A stretch of DNA of 32,000 bases from Methanoculleus sp. (GCA_030156625.1 JASGMC010000010.1:1-32000); one strand, 5' to 3'; counted from the stretch's first letter, positions 18,546-32,000 are shown. Translations and numbers: made by a program. The notes: generated by a model from the letters alone, not told the origin.

Positions 18546-18699
18546 AGCATATAAGGTATCTCTGGGGCGCGAAGGGAAGTGACCAACAACCACACGAACT
18601 TCGCGTTTTCGCGCGAGATCTCGTTGTCTACTGACGATTCACACGAAGTGCAACTGCCCGGAGGATAGAAACTTGAGAAGCCACAGGCTTCAAGCCGCG

Positions 18700-18815
18700 A
18701 CGGGCCGAAGGGCTGGAGCGTGAGCACCGCAGGTGCGACGTTCCTCCGGAACGGAGCTTGAGCACCGCAAGGTGCGGGGGCAGGCGGAGTTCGAGCACCG
18801 TCAGGTGCGCAGTTC
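18700..18815. repeat. Three tandem REP-like hairpin units related to the repeat at 1-135
   Basis: Cores start at 18715, 18753 and 18786: ggagcgtgagcaccgcaggtgc, ggagcttgagcaccgcaaggtgc and ggagttcgagcaccgtcaggtgc. Each has a GCACC...GGTGC stem. The leader gacgggccgaagggc matches gacgggccgtagggc at position 1. Confidence 0.8.
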
Positions 18816-19049: not shown

Positions 19050-19162
19050 ACCCACCTGTACGCATCTCCGGGAAATATGCACACCGGTGCGGATACAGCG
19101 GAACAACAAACCCTATCCCGCCCCCCACCCAACCGTACCACTACATCAGGTCTTGTGGCGCA

Positions 19163-19645
19163 ATGGATACCAAACACAGCGTTCTGGAGAAATACTTCGG
19201 GTATACGTCATTCCTCCCCCACCAGGAAGAGATCATCGATTCCGTGCTCGCGGGGACGGACGTCCTCGCCGTCATGGCGACCGGGGGCGGCAAGTCCCTC
19301 TGCTACCAGCTCCCGGCCCTCGTCTTCGGCGGGCTTACGGTCGTCGTCTCGCCGCTCATCGCCCTGATGAAGGACCAGGTCGACGGCTTGCGGGCAAACG
19401 GCATTCCGGCGGCGACGATCAACAGTTCGCTCGGGCAGGGGGAGCGGAGGATCATCGAGCGGGTGATCCTCGAAGGCCGCATCCGGGTCCTCTACGTCTC
19501 GCCGGAACGGGCCGTGCAGCCGTTCTTCCTCTCGCTCCTTGCACAGGCGGATGTCCGGCTCATTGCCATCGACGAGGCGCACTGTATCTCCATGTGGGGG
19601 CACAAGGCACAGCCAACTGTGCTATCTCACATCGATCCGTTATAA
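19163..19645 (+). pseudogene. recQ: recQ 5' fragment (helicase motifs I to II), truncated by an insertion after codon WGH
   Basis: FLPHQEEII, Walker A MATGGGKSLCYQLPAL, motif Ia VVVSPLIALMKDQV and motif II DEAHCISMWGH. RecQ similarity ends at 19605; 13 unrelated codons then run to a stop. Confidence 0.9.
19594..19605. repeat. Left copy of the 12-bp direct repeat GTGGGGGCACAA at the recQ/insert junction
   Basis: Exact 12-mer, identical to 28505-28516. Confidence 0.9.
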
Positions 19646-19734
19646 ACCGCGCAGGGCAAAAAAGTAGTCGCATACCCGGGGTTGTAGCGGAAATATGAGG
19701 TCTCCGGTTCACCGACAACGGAGCAGACGGGATG

Positions 19735-19980
19735 AGGGACGACATCCCGCCCGACGAGCTCAACCGGGCGCCCGAGCCCGGGCTGAACTTTGGCTTCCCC
19801 TACTGCCACGCCAGCACCATTTCCGACGCCGAGTTCGGGGCCGGGTCCCATCCCTGCAGGGATTCTACGGGAGGTGCTCGCACCTACCCGGCGGCAATGG
19901 AAGGCTATTCGGTCTCGCCAGCGGTGGACGATCCCGGGCGGAGGGGGAGAAGGTCATCCGGCCGGTGAAGCGGTGGTGGT
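19735..19980 (+). pseudogene. Remnant of a PQQ-dependent sugar (glucose/sorbosone) dehydrogenase C-terminus, frameshifted
   Basis: One frame reads DELNRAPEPGLNFGFPYCH (compare DELN...G.NYGWP). Another frame reads GFYGR..LPGGNGRLFGLASGG...GEKVIRPV (compare G..FY.G..FP....FVA.HGSWNR...G.KV.RV). There is no N-terminal part. Confidence 0.4.
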
Positions 19981-20358
19981 GAGGGGACAATCCCATCTGT
20001 CCCGTGGTAAGGCAAAAAACGGCGAGGTCCAGGAATGCTCTGCATAACCGCGGGTGTACCGGAGAGTAAGATCCGTTCGCGTGTAACGTTCCGGTGCCTC
20101 GGCAGTTCGATGCCGACCGCCCCATTCCATGGCGGGAGTGCTGGCAGGAGTGCCGCGACCCGGGAATGGCGCTACTGATCACGCGAGAATGGATTATTCT
20201 CGGTGTAATTTGTTTTTCCAGTACCATTGGTATTCTTCAGTGCGATTAATCAGTAGATGTATATATCAGACCATGGAGATCATACTTCCTTGGTCGAACA
20301 GCCGCGAGAGCATTCGTAGGGTGCCCGATCGATAATTCACGAATTCAATGAGAAGTGA

Positions 20359-20397
20359 GTGATGTTCGTCCGCTGTCGAGGGTGGGACGAACATCAC
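20359..20397. promoter_or_regulatory. Perfect 13-bp inverted repeat (stem-loop or operator candidate) upstream of the large surface-protein gene
   Basis: gtgatgttcgtcc (20359-20371), a 13-nt loop, then ggacgaacatcac (20385-20397). It lies 86 nt upstream of ATG 20483. Confidence 0.5.
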
Positions 20398-20482
20398 GAC
20401 AGCCCGCAGGCAAAGCACGTTGGCTCTCTTCATGCTTAAGGATGTCCTTGTTTTTGCCTCCGGTTCGAAGGGAGATTACCAA

Positions 20483-23400
20483 ATGAGCACGAAACGTATG
20501 GAGAGAGTCTTTCCTCTTCTCATGACGGTGCTGATGATAGCCACGGCGTTCATTCCTGCCGTGAGCGCCGCAGAACCGAATACATCGAATGTGGATACCA
20601 CGTCCTGGATAAATACCTCCGCGGAGATTGAGAGTGCCGGAGAACCCGGTGCGGATACCTCACCGGCGACAGACAGCACCCGCGTGGTCACCGGTTCCGG
20701 CAAGATCCGGCTCAAAACCTACGACCCGGAGACCAGGACCATCCGGATCACGGATGAGGGCAGATCCGCCGCCGATGGAGACCTTGAGATCCGGCTGGTG
20801 AACACCACACCGGATCTCGGCACCTTCACCGAGATCTTCGAGATCACCGCGCACAGCACGATCGCCCTCGACGAATCAGAGGACTTCCGGGCCACATGGG
20901 CGCTCCACAACGGGGAGGAAAACGTCACCCGGGCCGAGTGGTTCGTCTGGGAGAACCGGTTGCATACCGTCAAGATCCCGATCATTGAGTACCGGAACGT
21001 CACCCTTGAGATTAATACATCTGAAAATCGTACTTTTGAGAATGTTACCCGTGGAGAAACTCTTCCTGAAACCGCCACGGTCCGGGAACCTTATATCGCC
21101 GGCACCGAGACCCGGGAGCGGTACTGGTATGAGTGGGTGCCGTTTGACCCGGCGGGGCAGACGCTCAACGCCGAAGAGGCGCGGACCTTCAAGGTCGTCT
21201 ACACCAAGCCCGCCGAGATCGGGCAGGTCGATATCAACACCGCCCCGGTCTTCCGGGGCGTCGCGTGCCCGGAGATGACCTGGTGGAGCACTGCCTGGAC
21301 CGCGCGGGTGCCGATCACAATCATCAACCCGCCAGCGGTCGATAACTACTCTCACTGTGAGGTCGTCTCGTTCCTTCCCGGCATGCAGAGCGACTTCGAT
21401 GACGTCCGGTTCGCGACCGACGACGGCACCGTTCTCGACTACTGGAAGGAGTCCTATACTGCATCCGACTCGGCCGTCATCTGGGTCAATCTCCCCGCCG
21501 GTGTGACCTTGATCTGGATGTACTACGGGAATGCGGCAGCCACCGATACCGGCAGCAGAGATAACGCTTACATCCTCTACGACGACTTCAACGGCCCGGA
21601 TCTCGATACGACGATCTGGACGGACACACATCCCGACGGCCATTACATCTCCAATGGTTGGATATACGATGTCCGAACTCAGGAAACCGGCATTCGTGGC
21701 GTTCTGGTATCCAATGATAATGTGATCGCCAACGGCGAGCCGGTGATCGTAGAGATGCATATCCACGCCGATGGCCTCGCCAGTCCCGGCTACTGCTCCG
21801 GGTATCTTCCTATCTTTATTGACCACATCGACCACGACTCCGCGATCCGGAACGGTCTGCTCTGGTACAAGCAATCGTCAAACTGGTGCCGGTACGTCCT
21901 TGTGAACGGTGTTGCATCATGGCGGCCGGGAGCATCGCGTGGCCTCGCGGTTGGCGGCGACTACTACAACACCTGGATCATCACACCGTCCAGTCAGACC
22001 CATACTGTCAGTGGGAGCGCCTCCTACACCGATGTATTTGCTGGCACGACCGGAATCTCAAACCATCGGATGGTCATTCTGGGCGGCGATAACTCGGTTT
22101 CCGGCCGAGTCATGCGGATGGACTGGATCCGGGCGCGGAAGTACGTCGAAACCGAACCGACATTCGCCTACGGTACACCGGAGTTCGAACCGCCAGTGGC
22201 GAACTTCACGGCCTCGCCAATCACAGGCGCCGCCCCGCTCACCGTCCAGTTCACCGACACATCGACCGGCAGCCCGACCTCCTGGGCGTGGGACTTCACA
22301 AACGACGGATCATGGGACAGTTATGCGCAGAATCCGTCCTACACCTACAACAACCCCGGCACGTACTCGGTCAAACTCAGGGCCACGAACGCCGACGGGG
22401 ACGATGAGGAGGTCAAGACCGATGTCATCACGGTGACTGCACCGATCTACTATGTCTATGCTGAAGCGGGAGATAGTGGAACATCAGTATACAACATGGC
22501 AAAAGGATTCTGGGAGACGATCAAAGACGCCCAAAGCGGATGGACCACGTGGAGAGACTGGCGTAACGAAGATGACATTATTAAAAGCGATTCCTCTCGG
22601 GAAGGCCACTGGAGGAAAACAGCGGCAAATCCTCCAGGCCATGCGGATCAATGGGTCGAAAGAGCGGATTTTGCATACTTTACGGGTCATGGGTTTCCCA
22701 ATGGTTTCCTTTTTGAGGAGCCAGATGAAGATTCCAATTTAACCGAAGCACACGCGCAAAACATATCGCTGGGGTCCGGGCGCACCAAATGGGTTGTACT
22801 TGATTCATGCTCAAGTCTCAATGAAAGCAGCCAGACAAACTGGCATGCGTCCTTTAATGGACTGCGGATGCTGCTGGGCTGGGATTCGCCAACAACTCCG
22901 ACGAATATACCTATCGGTCGCGGAGAGATGTTTGCAAAACTAATGATGGGGCAATATCCAGATCCTACCGCTTCCGAACTCTCAATATTCGAAGCTTGGA
23001 CATGGGCAGCAGTGTATACGTGGGAAGGTTACTCCCCTGGAGAGGACATATATACTGCGATCATATACGACACAAATTGCTTGAATGATATGCTCCCCGG
23101 ATGGGGCGGGTATTCAACCTCTCCAAGCGGTTTCCTCGAATATAACAAGACACTTGTAAAAAATGTGAATGAGGGAAAAGATGTTGAAAAATCGACTATG
23201 CTGGATTCAACTAATGGCAGATATTCGATACATACTTCTGTGCCCACTACATCAGGTAAACTCATGACGTATATATCTGAAAAACCAGAGTATACGGAGG
23301 AGTGGGTAAGTTCGCTGGCAAGGAACCTCGGAATGTCCGGGAAGAAAAGAGAATCGGAAAAGGCATATTACGCTGATGAAACCGAAGAAGATGAGTTCTA

Positions 23401-23998
23401 TTTCGTCGTGCAAAAGGATGCCAAAATCATTGCATTTAAAAAATATCATCAGCAATCGGGAGAACCCCTTTCAGCCGAAACAGCGACTGAATCAGTACAT
23501 GAGTTCTTGGAAAATGCCGGCCTCATGTTCCCCGATGCAACAGACGCCAATATCGGCTATAATACCGGTGAAAGTATTTCTCCTTCGGGAGAACGTGTCC
23601 AAACTTGGAAACAGATCGTAGTAACTTTCCCCCGCGAACTGAACGGCCTGAGGGTATGGGATTCACAAATCCTTGCCGATGTGGATCCACAAGGTAATGT
23701 CGTCAGATTATTTATCAGCTGGCCGGATTATAAGCCACATAAAGAGGTGTCACTGAAGACACCTGAACAAGCCTTTGAAGAGTTCCAGAAGGAATTCGCC
23801 AGCATTCATGGGGAAAAAGCGGAAAAAGTTATCGTAACCGATGTTTCGCTCGGGTATTCCTCATTGCCGATCTCTGGAACACAACGGTGCCTTCAGCCGA
23901 CATACGTCTTCGAGGGGTCCGTTCAACGGGGAAGTTTGACCGATGAGTTCGAACCTATCATTATTGAAGCAAGCGGTGAAGGGGTTGATATTGCATGA
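20483..23998 (+). CDS. Large secreted mosaic surface protein: signal peptide, unknown N-domain, DUF2341, ConA/LamG-like, PKD, domain A (putative Cys-peptidase-like), module B
   Basis: GGAG lies 8 nt upstream of ATG 20483. Signal peptide: MSTKRMERVFPLLMTVLMIATAFIPAVSA. DUF2341-like: WWSTAWTARVPITI...FDDVRFATDDGTVLDYW...VIWVNLP...MYYGN. PKD: APLTVQFTDTSTGSPTSWAWDF...YTYNNPGTYSVKLRATN. Domain A: FTGHG (His codon 22688-22690) and VVLDSCSSLNES (Cys codon 22808-22810). The C-terminal ~260 aa are paralogous to the next gene. Confidence 0.85.
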   Translation: MSTKRMERVFPLLMTVLMIATAFIPAVSAAEPNTSNVDTTSWINTSAEIESAGEPGADTSPATDSTRVVTGSGKIRLKTYDPETRTIRITDEGRSAADGDLEIRLVNTTPDLGTFTEIFEITAHSTIALDESEDFRATWALHNGEENVTRAEWFVWENRLHTVKIPIIEYRNVTLEINTSENRTFENVTRGETLPETATVREPYIAGTETRERYWYEWVPFDPAGQTLNAEEARTFKVVYTKPAEIGQVDINTAPVFRGVACPEMTWWSTAWTARVPITIINPPAVDNYSHCEVVSFLPGMQSDFDDVRFATDDGTVLDYWKESYTASDSAVIWVNLPAGVTLIWMYYGNAAATDTGSRDNAYILYDDFNGPDLDTTIWTDTHPDGHYISNGWIYDVRTQETGIRGVLVSNDNVIANGEPVIVEMHIHADGLASPGYCSGYLPIFIDHIDHDSAIRNGLLWYKQSSNWCRYVLVNGVASWRPGASRGLAVGGDYYNTWIITPSSQTHTVSGSASYTDVFAGTTGISNHRMVILGGDNSVSGRVMRMDWIRARKYVETEPTFAYGTPEFEPPVANFTASPITGAAPLTVQFTDTSTGSPTSWAWDFTNDGSWDSYAQNPSYTYNNPGTYSVKLRATNADGDDEEVKTDVITVTAPIYYVYAEAGDSGTSVYNMAKGFWETIKDAQSGWTTWRDWRNEDDIIKSDSSREGHWRKTAANPPGHADQWVERADFAYFTGHGFPNGFLFEEPDEDSNLTEAHAQNISLGSGRTKWVVLDSCSSLNESSQTNWHASFNGLRMLLGWDSPTTPTNIPIGRGEMFAKLMMGQYPDPTASELSIFEAWTWAAVYTWEGYSPGEDIYTAIIYDTNCLNDMLPGWGGYSTSPSGFLEYNKTLVKNVNEGKDVEKSTMLDSTNGRYSIHTSVPTTSGKLMTYISEKPEYTEEWVSSLARNLGMSGKKRESEKAYYADETEEDEFYFVVQKDAKIIAFKKYHQQSGEPLSAETATESVHEFLENAGLMFPDATDANIGYNTGESISPSGERVQTWKQIVVTFPRELNGLRVWDSQILADVDPQGNVVRLFISWPDYKPHKEVSLKTPEQAFEEFQKEFASIHGEKAEKVIVTDVSLGYSSLPISGTQRCLQPTYVFEGSVQRGSLTDEFEPIIIEASGEGVDIA

Positions 23999-25047
23999 CC
24001 GGAAAAGATGAGAACTGTCGGAAGATGAGAGCACCTGTGGTAAAAGGTTCGATATCAACATTTTTTGTCCTCTGTCTTCTGCTTACCACCTTTATCGTTT
24101 CAGCAGGATGCACATCGCAGACCTCATCGGCAGTCCCTTTGCCGGACGTCACGCCTCACGATAATTCCCAAGAATACAGAGATCTCAATCCAGAGGAGAA
24201 TAACACCCTGGAGAACAGCAGCTCGCACGATCCGCGGTTTTTTAACGCAAGAGAGGGCATGTATTCGATAAATGCTTCGTTCCCCGATGTTTCCAAGAAA
24301 ATCATGGTGTACACCCCCGAAAAACCGGAGTATACAAAGGAATGGGTGAGTTCGCTGGCAAAGAAATTCGGAATGTCCGGGAAGGTAAGGGAGTCGGAAA
24401 AAGCATATTACGCCGATGAAGCCGAAACAGATGACTATTATTTCGTTGTGCTGAAGGATGATCGAAGTATCAGCTTTAAAAGTTATCATCAGCAGTCAGG
24501 AGACCCTCCTTCACCCGAAAACGCAACAAAATCGGTGAAGGAATTCCTGGAAAGCGCCGGCCTCGCGTTCCCCGGTGCAACAGAAGCCGGGATCAACTAT
24601 GATACCGGGGGAAGTATTTCGTCTTCAGGGGAGTATGTCCAGAACTTTAAACAGATCGTAGTAACGTTCAACCGTGAGTTGAACGGCATCAGCGTATTGG
24701 GTTCGAGTATCATGGCCCGTGTAGATGCGCAGGGAAATATTATCGAATTATTTTTCCACTGGCCGGACTACAAGCCTTACAAGGAAGTTTCGCTGAAATC
24801 CCCCGAACAGGCCTTTGCCGAGTACTTGGAGTACCAGAAAGATTCGCTGTATATCACAGGAGCCCCGATGAAGCCGGAGAAAGTAGTGGTAACCAGGGTC
24901 TCACTGTTTTACCGATCAACGGGGAAATATGTCGAACCGATATATGTATTCCAGGGATACGGGCAGCAGGGGGAAGTGACACAGCCCTTCGCCTCGGTGT
25001 ATGTCGTGGCAACGGATGAGGGATTGGAAAGATGGCTTGTGTACTGA
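23995..25047 (+). CDS. Stand-alone module-B lipoprotein (paralog of the C-terminus of the preceding protein)
   Basis: Its start overlaps the upstream stop (ATGA at 23995-23998); ATG 24025 is an alternative. Lipobox FIVSAGC. Residues ~90-350 align with the last ~260 aa of the 1192-aa ORF. Some stretches show high nucleotide identity by eye (24321-24470 vs 23279-23430). Confidence 0.8.
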   Translation: MTGKDENCRKMRAPVVKGSISTFFVLCLLLTTFIVSAGCTSQTSSAVPLPDVTPHDNSQEYRDLNPEENNTLENSSSHDPRFFNAREGMYSINASFPDVSKKIMVYTPEKPEYTKEWVSSLAKKFGMSGKVRESEKAYYADEAETDDYYFVVLKDDRSISFKSYHQQSGDPPSPENATKSVKEFLESAGLAFPGATEAGINYDTGGSISSSGEYVQNFKQIVVTFNRELNGISVLGSSIMARVDAQGNIIELFFHWPDYKPYKEVSLKSPEQAFAEYLEYQKDSLYITGAPMKPEKVVVTRVSLFYRSTGKYVEPIYVFQGYGQQGEVTQPFASVYVVATDEGLERWLVY

Positions 25048-25382
25048 AAGAGCGTTCCGATGAACTCAAAAGAGCACCGGAAAGGGTTGACAAGTTCATT
25101 CGCTACGGGGAACCGATATACTACATGCACAAGATTCCCGTACACGCCGGATACAGAGGCAGTTATCTCCAAGCCAGTTGAAAGAACCGGGTATTCAAGG
25201 GACGAATTCTTTGCTGGCAAGTCCCCGGTACCTGCGGGGGAAAGCGTGCGGATGTACCCATCCGTCACCTTTCCCGATGGCGGTTTTCTTGAGCGCAAAG
25301 CGACGTTCACCACCGTCCTGAGCCGTTCCGTACCGGTACGATATCGGGCTGATCGACTGGACGACCGAGGAGCGGATCCACG

Positions 25383-26840
25383 ATGGAGACAGAACCGACA
25401 GCGAGAACGAGATCAGGACCTGCTGGCACACAGATTCGGCGACACCAGCACCAGCACCAGCACCAGCACCAACACCGCCCGCACCCGACACACATCTACA
25501 GCAGCGCCGGCACCTACACGGTAACGCTGAACGTCAGCGATGCTTGTGGGTACGATATCAGCAGCCAGACCCTTATCACCGTCACCTCGGACCAGACCGT
25601 AATGAATCCGGCCCTCTCCTTTGCATCGCCAGACACCCTGATCCTGCGCGAAGGGAAGAATTTCGTCTCGACGCCCTGCTACCTCACATCCGGACACGAT
25701 ACAGCGGGTACGGTCTTCCCGGACTTCGGTACCGATGTCCGGGGATACAGGTTCGAAAACGGCCGGACGGTAATCCTGACGGCGCAGGATGAAATTCGGT
25801 CGCTTGAAGGATACATAATCTACTCGGACGGGTACCACGAGATTTCCCTTCAGTTCGAAGATCCCCAGGTACATCCGACAGTTACAAAAGACCTCGACGA
25901 AGGCTGGAATCTCGTCGGCTTCTATGGTTTGAGCCAGGAATGTGCACGGGACACGCTCATTTCCCTCAGGAACGTGTGGTCGGAGGCAAAGGGCTGGGAT
26001 GCCGGGTCGCAGGAATACGAGACCTCCTTTATCAGGGATTCGACCGGCGATACCAGCGACCAGCGCCTGATGTTTCCGGGGAAGGCTTACCTGGTGTACA
26101 TGACGGAAGAGGGAACTCTGTTCCGCTCGTACTACCTGACGTATTCCTTCTGCGCCGAATGGGTGGGCGACTATCACGGCATGCAGACTCCTCTCTTCAG
26201 CGCCGAGGAAGAGGCCGAAGGCTTCTACGACACGCTTGAAGGGTCGAGTTCATGGACCGGCCAGTTCATCAACGGCAACGACGCCGCGATGGAACGGCAC
26301 TGGAAGGACCCGGCCTTCGGCGGGATTGATTCGAACCACATCGACAACGCACACCTGGCCTTCTTCGTAGGCCACGGGTGGGAGGGCGGGTTCGTCTTCG
26401 GGACCGCCGCCGACGATTACGAGCTGAACTACAGCGAGGCGCGCTGGGGCAACACGAAGACCGACTGGATTATTCTCGGATCGTGCAGCACCCTGAATGA
26501 ATCCACGCGGGAGCACTTGGAGGATGCCTTCGAGGGGCTCCATTCCATATGCGGCTTCGATACCATCGGAGGCACTCACCCGGATATGGGGTGGTATTTC
26601 GCCCAGCAACTGATGGATGGTGAAACCATCTGGGACGCATGGTCTGCGGCGACAGATCAGTACGTGTTCCCGAACGATGGCAGTCTACGGTCAGCGGTTC
26701 TCGCCGCGGACATTGACGGTGACTTGAGCACGCATGATTGTCTTGATGACCATATTTACGGTTACGGATCGTCGATTAATCCGCCCGGTGATCCACCGGC
26801 ATTTCAATACGTGACAAAGCCATGTATACGGGAGATTTAA
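25383..26840 (+). CDS. Second domain-A protein (PKD C-terminal half, unknown beta-rich region, domain A); probably 5'-degraded, with no signal peptide in frame
   Basis: HIYSSAGTYTVTLNVSD is the end of a PKD domain. Domain A: FFVGHG (His codon 26373-26375) and WIILGSCSTLNES (Cys codon 26484-26486). The matching PKD segment FGDTSTS lies upstream in a different frame. Confidence 0.6.
   Translation: METEPTARTRSGPAGTQIRRHQHQHQHQHQHRPHPTHIYSSAGTYTVTLNVSDACGYDISSQTLITVTSDQTVMNPALSFASPDTLILREGKNFVSTPCYLTSGHDTAGTVFPDFGTDVRGYRFENGRTVILTAQDEIRSLEGYIIYSDGYHEISLQFEDPQVHPTVTKDLDEGWNLVGFYGLSQECARDTLISLRNVWSEAKGWDAGSQEYETSFIRDSTGDTSDQRLMFPGKAYLVYMTEEGTLFRSYYLTYSFCAEWVGDYHGMQTPLFSAEEEAEGFYDTLEGSSSWTGQFINGNDAAMERHWKDPAFGGIDSNHIDNAHLAFFVGHGWEGGFVFGTAADDYELNYSEARWGNTKTDWIILGSCSTLNESTREHLEDAFEGLHSICGFDTIGGTHPDMGWYFAQQLMDGETIWDAWSAATDQYVFPNDGSLRSAVLAADIDGDLSTHDCLDDHIYGYGSSINPPGDPPAFQYVTKPCIREI
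25443..25476. repeat. Hexanucleotide microsatellite (CACCAG)4-CACCAA-CACC
   Basis: Read directly. It encodes HQHQ.., TSTS.. or PAPA.. depending on frame. Confidence 0.9.
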
Positions 26841-27791
26841 ATGACAACAAAACAAGTTGTAATCGGAATTGCTGCCCTCTTGCTAATTATTGCCGGGACA
26901 GCACTGGTGCCAGCGGTGTCTCCGCAGGATGATGAAGGTTCAAACAGGGGAATCGAGATCGTCGGACCATACGGCGTGCAAAGTGTCTCTGAGATCGCTC
27001 TCGGTACCGCCCTCACGCGGTACCCCGAACAGGCAATGGTCTACAGGACGGTCGATACCATCGTATCGAAGGACGACGCGCTGAAGATAGCGGAGAAATT
27101 TGGAGTGATCGGACCACTTGAGGAAGATACACTGTCGTATTACATCAAAGACGATCCCTATACGTTTGATATTGAGAAGGAAGGCGGTTGTCTATCCTAT
27201 ACATGGGAAGGGCGGTGGAACGAAGGCGAAGGATACCGGGATTTCCCAGAACACCTCCCGACCGACGAGGAGTGCCGGAAGATCGCCGAAACGTTCCTCG
27301 CCTCTCAATGCTCTCATACCCGAGGGAGCTGTGTATTCTGGTGTTGCACATGGGAAGGGGATTTTTTCGAACCGCTCGGGAGGGACACCCATCGTCACGT
27401 ACGAAGATCGTGACGTCCTCTTCTCCGACACCCTGAGCGGCCTTCCCGTGGCCGGAAGCGGGATCCGGGTCACCATCGGCGGGGGCGGTGACATCCTTGA
27501 GGTCACCAAACGCTGGCGCGACGCCGAACCTTACAAGGAGTTCTCTATCCTCTCCCCAGAGGAAGCGGTTGAGGAGCTCAAACAGACCGGGGTCGTCACC
27601 GCGGTGAGTTCACCGAAGAAGGCGGTCGTCGACGAGGCCAAGCTCTGCTACTATGCAACCCCGCCGGCACCGAGCAGCCGTACCTCAAACCGACCTACTA
27701 CTTCCGCGGCACCGTAGAGGGAGAAAAGGAGGCCGGGACCTTCTACCAGTACGTTCCGGCGGTCCCGGAACTCGGGAAGGGGTTGTACTGA
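26841..27791 (+). pseudogene. Third module-B gene with an N-terminal TM anchor, interrupted by two opposite frameshifts
   Basis: TAAATG junction with the upstream gene, and GGAGA 6 nt upstream. Module-B similarity runs in frame 0 to ~27305, frame +1 to ~27670 (LNALIPEGAVY...ILEVTKRWRDAEPYKEFSILSPEEAVEEL), then frame 0 again (EQPYLKPTYYFRGT... stop 27789-27791). Confidence 0.7.
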
Positions 27792-27819
27792 TCCCCTCTC
27801 TCCGTTTTGCAAGACGCTG

Positions 27820-28011
27820 ATGCCCATGATGAACCAGATCGCAACCGGACTCGTCATTCTCGTGCTGCTCGTTGCCGGGACGGCACTGATACCGGTGGAA
27901 TATCCGCCGGACGATGAAGGCACAAGCGGGGGAATAGTGCTGTCGAAGACAAAAATCGGGATAATCCTGGTGGTCGCCATTGCGCTCTCTGCAACCATCT
28001 TCATGGAGTGA
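27820..28011 (+). CDS. Small two-TM protein, or N-terminal relic of a fourth module-B gene
   Basis: AGTALIPVEYPPDDEGTSGGIV parallels AGTALVPAVSPQDDEGSNRGIEIV at the N-terminus of the 26841 gene. Only 63 aa. Confidence 0.4.
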   Translation: MPMMNQIATGLVILVLLVAGTALIPVEYPPDDEGTSGGIVLSKTKIGIILVVAIALSATIFME

Positions 28012-28319
28012 GAGAGTTCAAGGATTTCTTCACGCGTCAGCGACATTTTCCTTGAATAACAAATATTTGCTCATTATATGTAGATCTATTCTTAATCTGC
28101 TCTCTAATTCTTGATTAAGGAACAATTGATACCCAGGTTAAAAAATTATGCCATAGTTGAACAGTTACCATCGGTTATCATAAGCGGGTCAGATATTTAT
28201 CAGAATGGGTCGACAGGACAGCATCTGGTCGTTATCAGTTACTATGATGCAGATTTTCCCATGGTTATCGCAGATACTTATGTGTAACTCCCATTTAGTT
28301 CGCGATATGATTGACGATG

Positions 28320-28504
28320 GAGAACGAGATAATTCGCGCCGGTTCAATGTTCACCGACACCTCCGATGCCTCGCCAACGAAATGTTACTGGACTTCGGTG
28401 ACGGTACGAACTCGACCATGCAGAACACAACGCATACTTACGAATCGCCCGGTAGTTACAACGTCACGTCCCGTACGTGGAACGACCACGGGAGCGATAC
28501 GGTG
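28320..28504 (+). pseudogene. PKD-domain remnant with a 1-nt frameshift, cut off by the right insert junction
   Basis: Frame 0 reads MFTDTSDASPTKCYW, then frame +2 reads DFGDGTNSTMQNTTHTYESPGSYNVTSRTWNDHGSDTVVG. tactggacttcggtgacggt lacks one G relative to tac tgg gac ttc ggt gac ggt. Confidence 0.7.
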
Positions 28505-28872
28505 GTGGGGGCACAACTTCCGGCCGGAGCCGGGCGGTGCTCGCGGGCAATCTTGTGGTGCCGCTCACCGAGCCGCGTCCGGAGGGCATCGTCGCGCCGG
28601 AGACCGGGGAGGACTACGACGAGGCGCTCTTCCTCCGGCTCCGCCGCCTCCGGAAGGTCGTTGCCGACCTCGATCGCGTGCCGCCGTTCGTCGTCTTCCA
28701 CGACCGGAGCCTCAAGGAGATGGCGAAGATCTACCCGGGCACCGGCGTCGCCCTTCTCCGGGTCTACGGGGTCAGCGAGGCGAAGCTGAAGCGTTATGGC
28801 AGGAGGTTCCTCGACGCCATCGATAAGCATTGCGCCGAACAGGGGATCGGACCGGAGCAACGGAGCGGGTGA
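28505..28872 (+). pseudogene. recQ: recQ 3' remnant: right 12-bp repeat plus WGHNFRPE (motif II continuation), then an internal deletion joining out of frame to the C-terminal/HRDC region
   Basis: 28506-28529 reads W G H N F R P E. From ~28534, in the +1 frame: AVLAGNLVVPLTE...YDEALFLRLRRLRKVVADLDRVPPFVVFHDRSLKEMAKIYP...VYGVSEAKLKRYGRRFLDAI, which is an HRDC domain. Confidence 0.85.
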
Positions 28873-28983
28873 CCCCGGCGGGAGGAACCGGGTCACAGAT
28901 CTGTAGCACCGCCGCCGCAACTACAGTTTTCTGACAAATCACTATATAAATCTGTAGTTCAGAGATTGTATTGGTGAAAAGCG

Positions 28984-29388
28984 ATGGTTGCACTTACTGA
29001 AGAGATGAAGGCAGCGTTTAGCACGATGAAGGCCTTCCCGGTCGCCACGGCCTCGAAGGACGGGTGGCCGAACGTGGTGCCGATCGGGTTCGTGGAACTC
29101 GTCGACGACGAGACGATCTGGATCGCGGACAACTTCATGAAGAAGACGCTTGCAAACGTCCGGGAGAACCCGAAGGTCTCCATCTACGTCTGGGGACCCG
29201 AGACGAAGGGCTGCTTCCAGGTCAAGGGCGACGTCGAGGTCAGGTCCGAAGGCCCGGAGTTCGAGAAGATGCAGCTCACCGTCCGGTCGAAGATGGCGAA
29301 GGCGCCGGCGAAGAACCTCCTCGTCATGAAGATCCGGGAGGTCTACGAGTGCTCTCCCGGGCCGAAGGCCGGGGAGAAGATCCTTTAA
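28984..29388 (+). CDS. Pyridoxamine 5'-phosphate oxidase-fold FMN-binding protein
   Basis: 134 aa. FPVATASKDGWPNVVPIGF...IWIADNFMKKTLANVRENPKVSI matches the split-barrel flavoprotein pattern. Confidence 0.75.
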   Translation: MVALTEEMKAAFSTMKAFPVATASKDGWPNVVPIGFVELVDDETIWIADNFMKKTLANVRENPKVSIYVWGPETKGCFQVKGDVEVRSEGPEFEKMQLTVRSKMAKAPAKNLLVMKIREVYECSPGPKAGEKIL

Positions 29389-30006
29389 AAACATTTTTGA
29401 TGGCCTCTGCCGGGGTTGTTTCCCCGGCCCCGTGCAGGAGAGGGGGTGAGCATCGGGAGGGTGTGATCCTCTCACTGCTTCTTCCCTCTGGCCGGTCGCG
29501 ACTCGTACAACGGTAATCACATTCTTTTTCCCTTCGGGAAGCCGTGACCCGAAGCCCTTCAATCTGCCCGGACTCCGTTCCCCTCATATCTTTGATGTTC
29601 TGCAGGGACTTCTTAGAGTATCCGCCCATAATGCCGGTCGTTAATGGGAGGCGTAGTTCTCAATGGACGGGGATGGGGAAAAGAAAAAGATCAAAATGCT
29701 GTCATTGTCGGAGATATTCTCTGGTTGATCGAGTTTGCGGTGACCTCTTCCGCCAATCCCCCTCCATTTTTGAACATGGCTCAGCCCACCGCCGTGGGGT
29801 GAACACGTACGTGTCCGTGTCGGCGGATGCAACAGAGGGCCGGGAAATATTCAGGCGCACAAATAAAAATGAATATTACCGTATTCCTTCTTCGGCCGGC
29901 AAGTACGAAGCACCCCCCGTCAGCCGACAACCGCCACCGTCCAGGTGGCCTCATCCGATCACATACTCGGGTGCATCTGCTGCCAGAGCACACAGGAGGT
30001 ATTGGA

Positions 30007-30798
30007 ATGCTGAACAAAACATGCATTGGCATGGCCATTCTCGTCGTCCTCTGCATCGGCCTGGTCGGCTGTGCGAGCGCACAGGAGGGCATCCCGACGC
30101 CGGACGGATTCGAGAAGACCCTGGTCTACATGGGTGCGGGCAAGTACGACCCGTCGGTCCCGCCGGAGGAGGGGAACCTCACCGAGTGGTACCACATGGA
30201 GGTCATGAACCGGACGGACGCCGAGATCGCTGAAGAACAGCAGGCGGCCGACGCCTACTTCGAAGAAACGTTCGGTCCCGGCCTGCCGCCAGCAATGGCC
30301 TTCGGGTTCGACCCGCGCAACGAGTACCGCGCCTACTACGTCTCCAACGAATCTGCCCCCTCGGAAGGCTGGGTCGTCCGTGACGGCGGGTTCATGGTCA
30401 TGATCCCCGAAGGCGGCATGAACCTGACCGGCACCTGGGGCGGTGAGAACGGCACGTTCGTGCCGGGCGGATCCTTCCTGGTCATCGGCGACTACAACAT
30501 CCTGATGAGCGAGGGGAACGAAACCGCGAACATGACCGACAACGCTACCGGCAACGCGACCGCTGAAGAGACGATGATCATCCACTACCAGTCCGCCGAA
30601 CCGATCATCCCGAGCCAGGAACTGGACGGCGCTTTCTTCTTCCGTTGCACCCTCATCAGTGACGAGTTCGGCGAGGGGATTGCCCAGGGCGTGAGCGCTC
30701 CGCAGATGGAGGACAACGTCACCCAGGCGAACATCCGCAACGTCCTGACCTTCCCGGCGTTCGGTCCGTCGATCGACCATACTGCGGGAACGGCCTGA
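30007..30798 (+). CDS. Secreted lipoprotein, sequon-rich, function unknown
   Basis: GGAGGT lies 9 nt upstream of ATG 30007. Signal plus lipobox: MLNKTCIGMAILVVLCIGLVGC. About ten N-x-S/T sequons. Confidence 0.7.
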   Translation: MLNKTCIGMAILVVLCIGLVGCASAQEGIPTPDGFEKTLVYMGAGKYDPSVPPEEGNLTEWYHMEVMNRTDAEIAEEQQAADAYFEETFGPGLPPAMAFGFDPRNEYRAYYVSNESAPSEGWVVRDGGFMVMIPEGGMNLTGTWGGENGTFVPGGSFLVIGDYNILMSEGNETANMTDNATGNATAEETMIIHYQSAEPIIPSQELDGAFFFRCTLISDEFGEGIAQGVSAPQMEDNVTQANIRNVLTFPAFGPSIDHTAGTA

Positions 30799-30808
30799 GA
30801 CGGGCTTT

Positions 30809-30841
30809 CGGCCGGTCTGCCGGCCGATCCCCCCTCTTTTT
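30809..30841. terminator. GC hairpin plus T-run between convergent genes
   Basis: cggccgg-tctg-ccggccg (30809-30826), followed by a C-rich tract and T5 (30837-30841). Confidence 0.45.
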
Positions 30842-32000
30842 AGAACCGGCGCGGATCGGTCTCCACATCGACTACGACCGGCACGTTCATCCGGACAGCC
30901 TCCCTGATGACCGGGCCGAGCGCTTCGGGCGTATCCACCCGGATACCCGTGGCCCCGCAGGCCTCTGCATACTCGACGAAATTGGGGTTGAGCAGATCCG
31001 TCCCGAAGTTCGGGTACTCCTCCATCATCTGCTCGACCTGGATCATCGCGAGCTGCCGGTTGTTCAGCACGACGACCACCATCGGCAGATCGTACTTCAC
31101 CGCCGTGACGAGATCGGCCATCGCCATGGAGAACCCGCCGTCGCCGGTGATGCAGACCGCCGTCCTCTCCGGGTAGGCGAGCTTCGCCGCGATCGCAGCC
31201 GGGAACCCGAACCCCATCGTCGCGAGGTAGCCCGACATGACCATCCGCTGCCGCTTCATCCGGAAGTTCCGGCCGAACCACCAGCAGTTCTCCCCGACGT
31301 CGACGGAGATGACCGCGTCGTCCGGCAGGGTCTCCGAGAGCACCTTCATGATGTACGGCGGACGGAGCGGCACCGCCGCAGCATCCGCCTCCCCGTCGCG
31401 CTGACGGTCCCATTCCTCTTTCAGCGCCCCGATCTGCCGGAGCGCCGCCGGGTCGTCCCGTCCCCGGATGCGTTCCAGCAGTTTTGGAAGCACGTACCGG
31501 CAGTTCCCCTGCAGCATCACTCCCTCAGGACCCTTCCCGAGTTTCTCCGGATCGACGTCTACCTGGACGAGGGGCACGTTCTCCGGGACACCGGTCAGTT
31601 TCGAGAACCCGACACCGAGGGTGATGAGCAGGTCCGCCCCGTCCGCGAGCTTCCTGGCCGACGGGGCACCGACATCGCCAAGGATACTCAGGAACCACGG
31701 TTCTGTCTCTGGAACAATGCCTTTTGCCCGGAACGTCGTCAGAATCGGCGCTTTGATCTTCTCGGCGAGAGCGACGACACCCCCGGCCGCGTCGTAGGCG
31801 CCCCATCCGGCAAGGATGGCCGGCCGCTCCGCCGCGTCGATCCGATCGGCCGCCCGCCGGAGGTCGGCATCGACCGGAAGGATATCGAGGGACGGCAGGC
31901 AGGACTCGCGGGTGCAAAACCCCGATGCGAGCGTTTCTTTCTGGATGTTGTTCGGAACCGAGAGCTGGGCGACGCCCCGCCGGAGAAACGCGTACTTCAG
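30840..32000 (-). CDS. Thiamine-pyrophosphate-dependent enzyme of the acetolactate synthase/pyruvate oxidase family (5' end outside the window)
   Basis: TPP-binding motif GDGGFSMAMADLVTAVKYDLPMVVVVLNN. My manual translation upstream of the track start (a GTG at 31577) stays open and reads ...TTFRAKGIVPETEPWFLSILGDVGAPSARKLADGADLLITLGVGFS, which is the central domain of this family. Confidence 0.85.
   Translation of the reverse strand: MKYAFLRRGVAQLSVPNNIQKETLASGFCTRESCLPSLDILPVDADLRRAADRIDAAERPAILAGWGAYDAAGGVVALAEKIKAPILTTFRAKGIVPETEPWFLSILGDVGAPSARKLADGADLLITLGVGFSKLTGVPENVPLVQVDVDPEKLGKGPEGVMLQGNCRYVLPKLLERIRGRDDPAALRQIGALKEEWDRQRDGEADAAAVPLRPPYIMKVLSETLPDDAVISVDVGENCWWFGRNFRMKRQRMVMSGYLATMGFGFPAAIAAKLAYPERTAVCITGDGGFSMAMADLVTAVKYDLPMVVVVLNNRQLAMIQVEQMMEEYPNFGTDLLNPNFVEYAEACGATGIRVDTPEALGPVIREAVRMNVPVVVDVETDPRRF

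Follow-up and report, generated by a model that had tools for sequence, protein, structure and literature searches.

The recQ helicase gene of a Methanoculleus sp. metagenome-assembled genome (MAG; GCA_030156625.1) is interrupted directly after helicase motif II by an insert at 19606-28504 of the stretch analysed here, the first 32 kb of JASGMC010000010.1 (the window, to the whole of which all repeat, G+C and open reading frame (ORF) counts refer; record P0001, from the same contig, is MDK2889796.1). The insert is bracketed by a perfect 12-bp direct repeat, and the locus is probably the fossil of an integrase-mediated integration at an attachment site (attB) within recQ, with the 12-mer as the attachment (att) core. 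Contigs of a mobile-element family, one of them carrying a tyrosine-recombinase-like gene, are joined to recQ at the same nucleotide. A further 1016 nt of the recQ core has been deleted close to the right-hand repeat, in an event separate from the insertion.

Direct repeat, junctions and empty site

Exactly two copies of the 12-mer GTGGGGGCACAA are present in the window (19594-19605 and 28505-28516), compared with a chance expectation of 0.03 copies and two or more copies in 0 of 100 shuffled sequences. The G+C fraction is 0.43-0.60 within the insert and 0.62-0.69 in its flanks. A first-pass annotation made from the sequence alone had pointed out both the repeat and the higher A+T content of the central part of the insert, and had described a left recQ ORF (19163-19645) that reads ...DEAHCISMWGH and then runs through 13 unrelated codons to a stop; all of this is borne out. 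Its statement that recQ resumes at the right-hand copy is correct for the frame WGHNFRPE, but after NFRPE there is a jump of 1016 nt and a change of frame into the tail that encodes the HRDC domain.

The structure is not a misassembly, the doubt that the same annotation had raised, because four independent assemblies reproduce it: over 19457-28827, a span that includes both junctions, the Logan assembly of SRR23823810 agrees with the window at every position; those of SRR19237654 and SRR34857968 cross the left junction at 100% identity; and a second MAG (GCA_030156165.1), which has both 12-mers, matches 19119-32000 at 99.4% identity. Misassembly is excluded as far as assemblies without reads allow. 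Several related assemblies break or have a gap of N exactly here, as a chimera at one or both junctions might lead one to expect, but a repeat of 12 nt is not long enough to confuse the usual assemblers and the breaks are better explained by mixed alleles; the probability of a chimera is negligible.

The empty site is found in three related loci (L082, L088 and L081), each of which has a single copy of the 12-mer at the orthologous position in recQ, GTGGGGGCATAACTTCCGG. Each carries one GTGGGGGCATAA, the difference being one synonymous C/T, and all three read ATGTGGGGGCATAACTTCCGG once. The N-terminal part of their recQ (recQ-N) is ~89%, ~89% and ~75% identical to that of the window, respectively, and their gene order is NAD synthase, HhH-GPD, recQ, (Exo_endo_phos) and PNPOx; the gene order flanking the window recQ is that of L088. 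An intact RecQ of 598-604 aa with all five domains is the norm in Methanoculleus, and among the matches listed in a search of genome contigs with the RecQ N-terminus, relatives are at most 63% identical. These orthologues establish 19606-28504 as an insertion, as had been proposed, and each of them does contain the 12-mer, which the first-pass annotation had named as the point on which a duplicated target or core would stand or fall. The recQ-N of L082 contains at about 375-430 a 55-nt insertion that repeats a VILEG-coding stretch and shifts the frame, which may be another inactivating lesion or an assembly error.

A junction shared with elements bearing a putative integrase

An 868-nt contig (L083) has the left junction of the window and the next 34 nt, after which the two sequences diverge. 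The match, 27 of 34 positions at a fixed register, has a chance probability of 4e-11. A degenerate pattern derived from the 34 nt, scanned against a collection of metagenome contigs, identified 12 contigs, one of which (L102) is a chance match. The 45-mer CATAA|GGCACTGTCAACTGTTAGATCCCACATCAATCCGGGGGCG is 100% identical in the other 11 contigs and L083, and lies in three left contexts: recQ (L095 and L083), with the junction exactly where the window has it; an AT-rich region downstream of an ORF of 917-1004 aa (nine contigs, context 1); and a different left flank in L100 (context 2). In all three contexts, CATAA stands before the arm. These observations strongly favour the alternative, offered by the first-pass annotation, that the 12-mer is an att core, for the first 34 nt of the insert are a family arm whose junction with recQ in other strains falls at the identical position. 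No tRNA or Rfam family overlaps the arm. The palindrome gcacag-ccaa-ctgtgc that had been noted at the left boundary (19607-19622) is present as stated, and is not conserved in the family arm, itself 100% conserved. The recQ sides of the junction show 14 differences in 223 positions between L083 and L095, whereas the element sides show 4 in 370, all of them after position 337 (Fisher p = 7e-4).

The element contigs come from bioreactor and anaerobic-digester metagenomes. In L095, recQ-N and the 45-mer are followed by genes for a CAP-domain protein, a PEGA-domain secreted protein, a tyrosine recombinase-like protein (2.1 kb inside the element) and a helicase. The predicted integrase is ~200 aa long, consists of the catalytic domain only, and by eye has the motifs TGMR...K...GHDIRTLLRHY (R..K..HxxR..HY). 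In the nine context-1 contigs, an integrase gene 86-95% identical to that of L095 ends 28 nt short of the 45-mer, and the other side of the site encodes a primase-polymerase (prim-pol)/helicase Rep, a Zot-like P-loop ATPase and an HTH_17 protein; the Rep-like protein has its relatives among the primase-polymerases of archaeal viruses and plasmids, with matches to the primase/polymerase of HAV2 (4e-22) and also to pORA1. In L100, a gene for an HTH_17 protein (excisionase/Xis-like) abuts the 45-mer. Mobile-element DNA is therefore present on both sides of the 45-mer, which is the arrangement expected of the attachment site of an element (attP). Some 270 nt of non-coding sequence surrounding the site hardly vary, although the integrase genes of these contigs diverge by up to 20%. 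The family has no match in IMG/VR, its matches in collections of phages and plasmids are all distant, and it could not be assigned to a catalogued family.

The family, as represented by the context-1 contigs L093, L096 and L101 and by L100, has contigs of at least 15.5 kb. Among its other products are small membrane proteins, a protein of 1045-1072 aa and one that is truncated by the contig end after at least 1178 aa and in which a WDFGD PKD-like motif and a C-terminal hydrophobic stretch resembling a membrane anchor are visible by eye. A tRNA-Gln(TTG) gene (L093, 2150-2221; L096, 4391-4462), ~5.3 kb from the att site and with no sequence in common with the att region, may be cargo or may mark a chromosomal boundary. 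The helicase of L095 (37-4026; Helicase_C and MZB, the MrfA Zn-binding domain; >1300 aa) resembles by eye a DUF559/Vsr-like endonuclease at its C-terminal end and may be a defence-type gene.

Proposed course of integration

A circular plasmid- or virus-like element would have entered recQ by site-specific, Campbell-type integration at an attB located at the W-G-H-N codons directly after helicase motif II, its tyrosine integrase recombining attP with recQ at ...GTGGGGGCA(C/T)AA|. The attP of this particular element would have contained the full 12-mer. The shared core would have been left as a direct repeat (attL, 19594-19605; attR, 28505-28516), with the integrase-proximal arm directly inside attL (19606-19639). 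The integrase and replication modules would later have disappeared, leaving a lower-G+C cargo of surface-protein genes, several of them frameshifted. A separate event, before or after the insertion, deleted 1016 nt from the core of recQ at a CCGGAG microhomology that lies 13 nt past the right-hand repeat. The circular form, or attP, would be expected to read ...ACGGTG-GTGGGGGCACAA-GGCACAGCC, and an empty site in the population would read ATGTGGGGGCACAACTTCCGG from recQ-N onward. For other members of the family, integrase action predicts an attR of the form element-(C/G)CATAA-CTTCCGGCC(G/T)GAG where the element is of the L095 type, and ...GGCGATATTTTCCATAA|CTTCCGG where it is of the context-1 type. 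At 213-219 of L095 (as oriented), the occupied allele reads GGGGCCATAA, as opposed to GGGGGCATAA in other recQ alleles, and its C agrees with TTTTCCATAA in the putative attP of context 1; the variant may be a trace left by strand exchange, in which case the overlap region would be (C/G)CATAA.

Several observations weigh against this course of events. The integrase is absent from the window copy and present in L095 at the same site, and the window copy can at best be a degenerate member of the family; it is best called a degenerate occupant of the site. Beyond the 34 nt, no DNA or protein similarity was detected between the insert and the element contigs, and the window arm is only 79% identical (7 of 34 positions changed) to a family arm that is otherwise invariant. 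The attP-like contigs have just CATAA (5-6 nt) in common with recQ, not 12 nt. No attP of the window's own element was found, nor was an attR of any family member among the fetched loci or the truncated members of the RecQ cluster. The right end of the insert is AT-rich and consists of a truncated PKD pseudogene without similarity to the left arms of the attP-like contigs, which is odd for an attP arm. The assignment of the L095 recombinase is itself below threshold in profile searches (Pfam Phage_integrase, PF00589, 1.9e-4 and 21.7 bits against a cutoff of 27.1; phrog_1 'integrase', 6e-6; phrog_216, 5e-3 to 9e-3), and a search with the integrase against PDB sequences gave no match.

Alternative explanations

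Some of these difficulties would be met if foreign circular or linear DNA that happened to contain GTGGGGGCACAA had crossed over with recQ at the 12-bp microhomology by illegitimate recombination, independently of any integrase. The right end of the insert does cut through a decayed PKD gene, the attP-like contigs have only 5-6 nt in common with recQ, and the adjoining deletion used a 6-nt microhomology, so microhomology joining operates at this locus. In a speculative variant, an aberrantly excised derivative of a recQ-resident element, carrying 7 nt of the left flank, re-entered an intact recQ, which would account for the recQ-specific GTGGGGG in the repeat. Under both versions, the 34-nt arm would merely have come in with the foreign DNA. 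Illegitimate recombination, the main rival, is nevertheless unlikely: the junction falls exactly at the nucleotide used by integrase-bearing relatives, next to a conserved arm, where a chance microhomology event should hardly strike, and no donor with a native 12-mer was found. The first-pass annotation had left the choice between a staggered-cut duplication and a Campbell-type crossover at a 12-bp microhomology; its Campbell-type integration at an att core is retained, and a tyrosine recombinase explains the crossover better than chance microhomology does. The other choice, in which a transposase or casposase made a 12-nt staggered cut and the element then decayed, would produce just such a perfect short direct repeat around an insert, and casposons give 14-15-bp duplications in archaeal genes (PMC4046053, PMC6563490). 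It is disfavoured to the point of being highly improbable, as the insert has no terminal inverted repeats, transposase, Cas1 or PolB, the CATAA before the arm is constant whether or not the arm adjoins recQ, as expected of a common recombination core and not of a duplicated target, and family members have a tyrosine integrase and an Xis-like protein beside the site. Membership of IS200/IS605, whose insertion 3' of CATAA had been considered, was dropped on seeing the integrase and Xis-like genes; no TnpA or TnpB was detected, the boundary palindrome is unconserved and a flanking duplication is present.

The insert might instead be a cassette that is still mobilisable, lacking an integrase of its own and borrowing that of autonomous members of the family, as a satellite or cis-mobilisable element does. 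It has att-like cores at both ends with a recognisable arm at attL, its three long ORFs are intact, and it is near-identical between two strains with differing flanks. Its arm, however, has changed at 7 of 34 positions of an otherwise invariant site, no second location was found, and the block that is identical between the strains (19391-28566) passes the att cores and takes in the 1016-nt deletion; a functioning cassette is quite improbable. Integrase-mediated integration followed by decay is preferred to these alternatives.

Inactivation of recQ

Two remnants of recQ flank the insert (Table 1). The left one, which encodes the N-terminal RecA-like domain, is ~89% identical at the nucleotide level to recQ of L082 and L083, and the right one is 86% identical to L082 1585-1933. 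Comparison with the contiguous recQ of L082 and L088 reveals a loss of exactly 1016 nt between 28529 and 28530, with which the Helicase_C, Zn-binding and RQC domains have gone, and shows that the breakpoints have CCGGAG in common. Of the five domains of a functional RecQ, only DEAD (19163-19605) and HRDC (28530-28872) are left. With both an insertion and a deletion of its core, recQ has been inactivated twice over, and it cannot be restored in this strain because the 1016 nt are gone. The perfect palindrome TCCGGCCGGA, imperfect in L082, overlaps the CCGGAG microhomology of the deletion, and could have a role in recombinase binding or in the deletion. Methanoculleus chikugoensis has an HRDC-only protein (P0320).

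The interval between recQ and PNPOx is a second variable island adjoining recQ. It is empty in the window (28873-28888), contains an Exo_endo_phos gene in L088 (12034-13002) and L104, and extends over 7 kb in L082 (1933-8960), with genes for a 1475-aa CarboxypepD_reg/SdrD_B surface protein, an Exo_endo_phos protein and an HTH regulator. Upstream of recQ, in the intergenic region from the HhH-GPD gene to a small ORF, two imperfect 35-nt direct repeats (18697-18769; 74% identical, spaced 38 nt) have no Rfam match.

Occupancy and inheritance of the site

Occupancy of the site is polymorphic, since L090 has the recQ-N allele of the occupied L095 (1 of 211 positions different) and yet continues into recQ across a 10-N scaffold gap; together with the unequal divergence of L083 and L095 on the two sides of the junction, this is evidence of active use of the recQ site. 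This gap (567-576) is at the recQ WGH codons, as is an N-gap in L088 (10441-10566) with 23 nt duplicated on both sides, and L089 reaches its contig end (3198) 10 nt before the site. Such breaks suggest that occupied and empty alleles were mixed in the samples.

The window and L084 differ within the 8899-nt insert by one single-nucleotide polymorphism (SNP) and one microsatellite indel, compared with 8 SNPs in 830 nt of the recQ remnants (p = 2e-8 versus the insert); the flanks differ by ~1%, with the differences clustered, a pattern that suggests exchange of flanking DNA with other alleles by homologous recombination. The block identical in the two (19391-28566) includes both junctions and the deletion, and because it extends past the att cores it was evidently passed on as a chromosomal block, not re-inserted via att.

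Between the window and L083, the ratio of nonsynonymous to synonymous substitution rates (dN/dS) in recQ-N is 0.14, with 16 nonsynonymous changes observed and ~96 expected under neutrality, and synonymous changes outnumber nonsynonymous ones by ~3:1 on all three terminal branches. With L081 as outgroup, a clade of the window and L083 has no support, and the three lineages are equidistant. An ancient shared pseudogene as the source of the junction in common with L083 was rejected in view of the dN/dS and of this equidistance. The low dN/dS could mean that the disruptions are recent and independent; its use as proof of a recent insertion was withdrawn, because the patchy flank SNPs of L084 indicate recombination, which also keeps recQ-N looking as if under selection.

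Contents of the insert

Every sizeable ORF of the insert is on the plus strand. The paralogy between the C-terminal domain of the first long protein and the 350-aa protein encoded next to it is evident at 23216-23515 and 24256-24555 (74% nucleotide identity). The third paralogue is followed by a signal-peptide stub and then by the frameshifted PKD fragment, which after repair of its frame matches positions 25-76 of the 85 of PKD_4, the match stopping at the junction. A PKD reading frame is therefore cut at the right end, as the first-pass annotation had noted; its corollary, that this ORF would continue as GTANCAIS at the left end, is not supported, for the left-end sequence is not PKD-like, the profile match ends at the junction and the fragment is frameshifted. 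Its failure to find an integrase, a transposase or terminal inverted repeats has been confirmed: a Pfam scan and tblastn with the family integrases detected no integrase, Rep or Xis in the window, Pfam scans of the large insert ORFs and family searches revealed no transposase, Cas1, PolB, TnpA or TnpB, and repeat analysis found no terminal inverted repeats at the insert ends. A PQQ-dehydrogenase fragment considered at 19700-19970 has no Pfam support.

The closest non-self homologues of the 1192-aa protein are 55-68% identical in the N-terminal half only. Neither a donor of the insert nor a second location of its cassette was found. A cassette of similar design recurs in L091 (750-7590, compared with 20420-27800 of the window) in an ordinary chromosomal context: a large secreted DUF2341-(PKD/Big_2)-DUF6345 protein is followed by several paralogues of 310-350 aa, one of which weakly matches the propeptide domain FTP. 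By eye, DUF6345 has conserved motifs of the GHG...DSCSS type, reminiscent perhaps of a His/Cys peptidase. The (CACCAG)n microsatellite has two extra units in L084, giving a protein of 489 aa as opposed to 485 aa, and the PKD domain upstream of the microsatellite appears to be in another frame.

Table 1. Features of the disrupted recQ locus of Methanoculleus sp., in window coordinates
Feature	Position	Strand	Remarks
recQ N-terminal remnant	19163-19605	+	147 codons + 2 nt; helicase motifs I-II; Pfam DEAD, 2.4e-22
Left 12-bp repeat copy, GTGGGGGCACAA	19594-19605	+	Candidate attL core; last 5 nt, CACAA, resemble the family-wide CATAA
Insert	19606-28504	+	8899 nt; lower G+C
Putative remnant of 34-nt integrase-proximal att arm	19606-19639	+	27/34 match to GGCACTGTCAACTGTTAGATCCCACATCAATCCG; once in window
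Palindrome GCACAG-CCAA-CTGTGC in arm remnant	19607-19622	+	Family consensus differs: GCACTG-TCAA-CTGTTA
DUF2341-PKD-DUF6345 secreted protein	20420-23998	+	1192 aa (1171 aa from ATG at 20483); C-terminal domain paralogous to next gene
350-aa secreted protein	23995-25047	+	Paralogue (74% nt) of C-terminal domain of preceding gene
485-aa protein	25383-26840	+	Partial PKD domain and DUF6345; (CACCAG)n near start
(CACCAG)n microsatellite	25443-25476	–	Start of PKD/DUF6345 gene
Third paralogue of 350-aa family	26841-27800	+	Pseudogene; two frameshifts
PKD-domain pseudogene fragment	28311-28504	+	Frameshift near 28385; cut off at junction
Right 12-bp repeat copy	28505-28516	+	Candidate attR core
13 nt of recQ, CTTCCGGCCGGAG	28517-28529	+	Codons NFRPE; holds palindrome TCCGGCCGGA; ends in CCGGAG
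Perfect 10-bp palindrome TCCGGCCGGA	28519-28528	–	Directly right of candidate att core, in recQ
recQ C-terminal remnant, HRDC domain	28530-28872	+	Pfam HRDC, 2e-18; out of frame with NFRPE codons

Relation to known systems and significance

The locus resembles the archaeal elements integrated by tyrosine recombinases in its flanking direct repeat, in the empty site of close relatives and in the shortness of the putative att, and the family to which its arm belongs resembles them in having an integrase gene beside the att arm. The shortest att sites of thaumarchaeal integrated elements measure 8 bp and the median is 17 bp (PMC6563490), a range in which a 12-bp repeat is ordinary; archaeal att sites within coding genes are known, but few and untested (PMC8371274). 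The reported protein-gene targets are mostly 3'-distal, with the gene restored (PMC6563490), whereas the site considered here falls within the catalytic core of recQ and its occupation destroys the gene; moreover, the window copy has lost its integrase, and the ~200-aa integrase of its relatives matches family profiles weakly. Compared with casposons and insertion sequences, the likeness is a short perfect direct repeat around an insertion in a coding gene; the differences are the absence of inverted repeats, casposase and transposase from the window, a repeat of 12 bp instead of the 14-15 bp of casposons, and a core that is constant across contexts and not derived from the target.

Integrase-less remnants flanked by att sites are known as cis-mobilizable elements (CIMEs), for example those related to ICESt1/3 of Streptococcus thermophilus. 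Like CIMEs, the insert has att-derived repeats at both ends and no recombination module, and has kept its cargo; unlike in CIMEs, the functionality of its att sites is doubtful, to judge by the diverged arm and the truncated right end. Aberrant excision of the lambda type gives rise to specialised transducing derivatives, and an event of this kind would explain both an element end that lies in an unrelated gene and host-flank bases in att.

Elements that interrupt genes, in some cases with the regulated excision termed active lysogeny, include skin in sigK, phi10403S in comK and SpyCIM1 in mutL. The recQ site is similar in that an integrase-bearing element resides in a functional gene, here one of genome maintenance, and in that occupied and empty alleles coexist; it differs in that the gene of the window is unrestorable, with 1016 nt deleted, and gives no sign of regulated, reversible excision. 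E. coli RecQ is reported to suppress illegitimate recombination (Hanada et al. 1997); in that light, the scrambled state of the locus may hint at a link with the loss of such suppression.

The locus is, in sum, a decayed integration scar with a separate deletion, a known kind of process at a new target, and the window by itself, with a dead recQ and a degraded island, would serve chiefly to mark strains. Of greater interest are the element family and its docking site in recQ: an att site in the catalytic core of a genome-maintenance helicase would be unusual, occupancy abolishing the gene rather than sparing it, and the comparison brings to light a family of mobile elements in methanogens of anaerobic digesters, whose candidate attP/attB pair is sharply delimited. 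It is conceivable, though on balance doubtful, that the WGHN codons of recQ are a dedicated docking site of this uncatalogued plasmid- or virus-like family of Methanoculleus (with its prim-pol Rep, Zot-like ATPase, small tyrosine integrase and large PKD or membrane proteins), that occupancy switches RecQ off and on in digester populations, and that the scrambled insert and deletion of the window are the long-term outcome. If so, the elements would reversibly knock out, under their own control, a helicase that keeps illegitimate recombination in check, and reversible occupancy would be the archaeal equivalent of active lysogeny in bacteria, directed at a gene that controls recombination.

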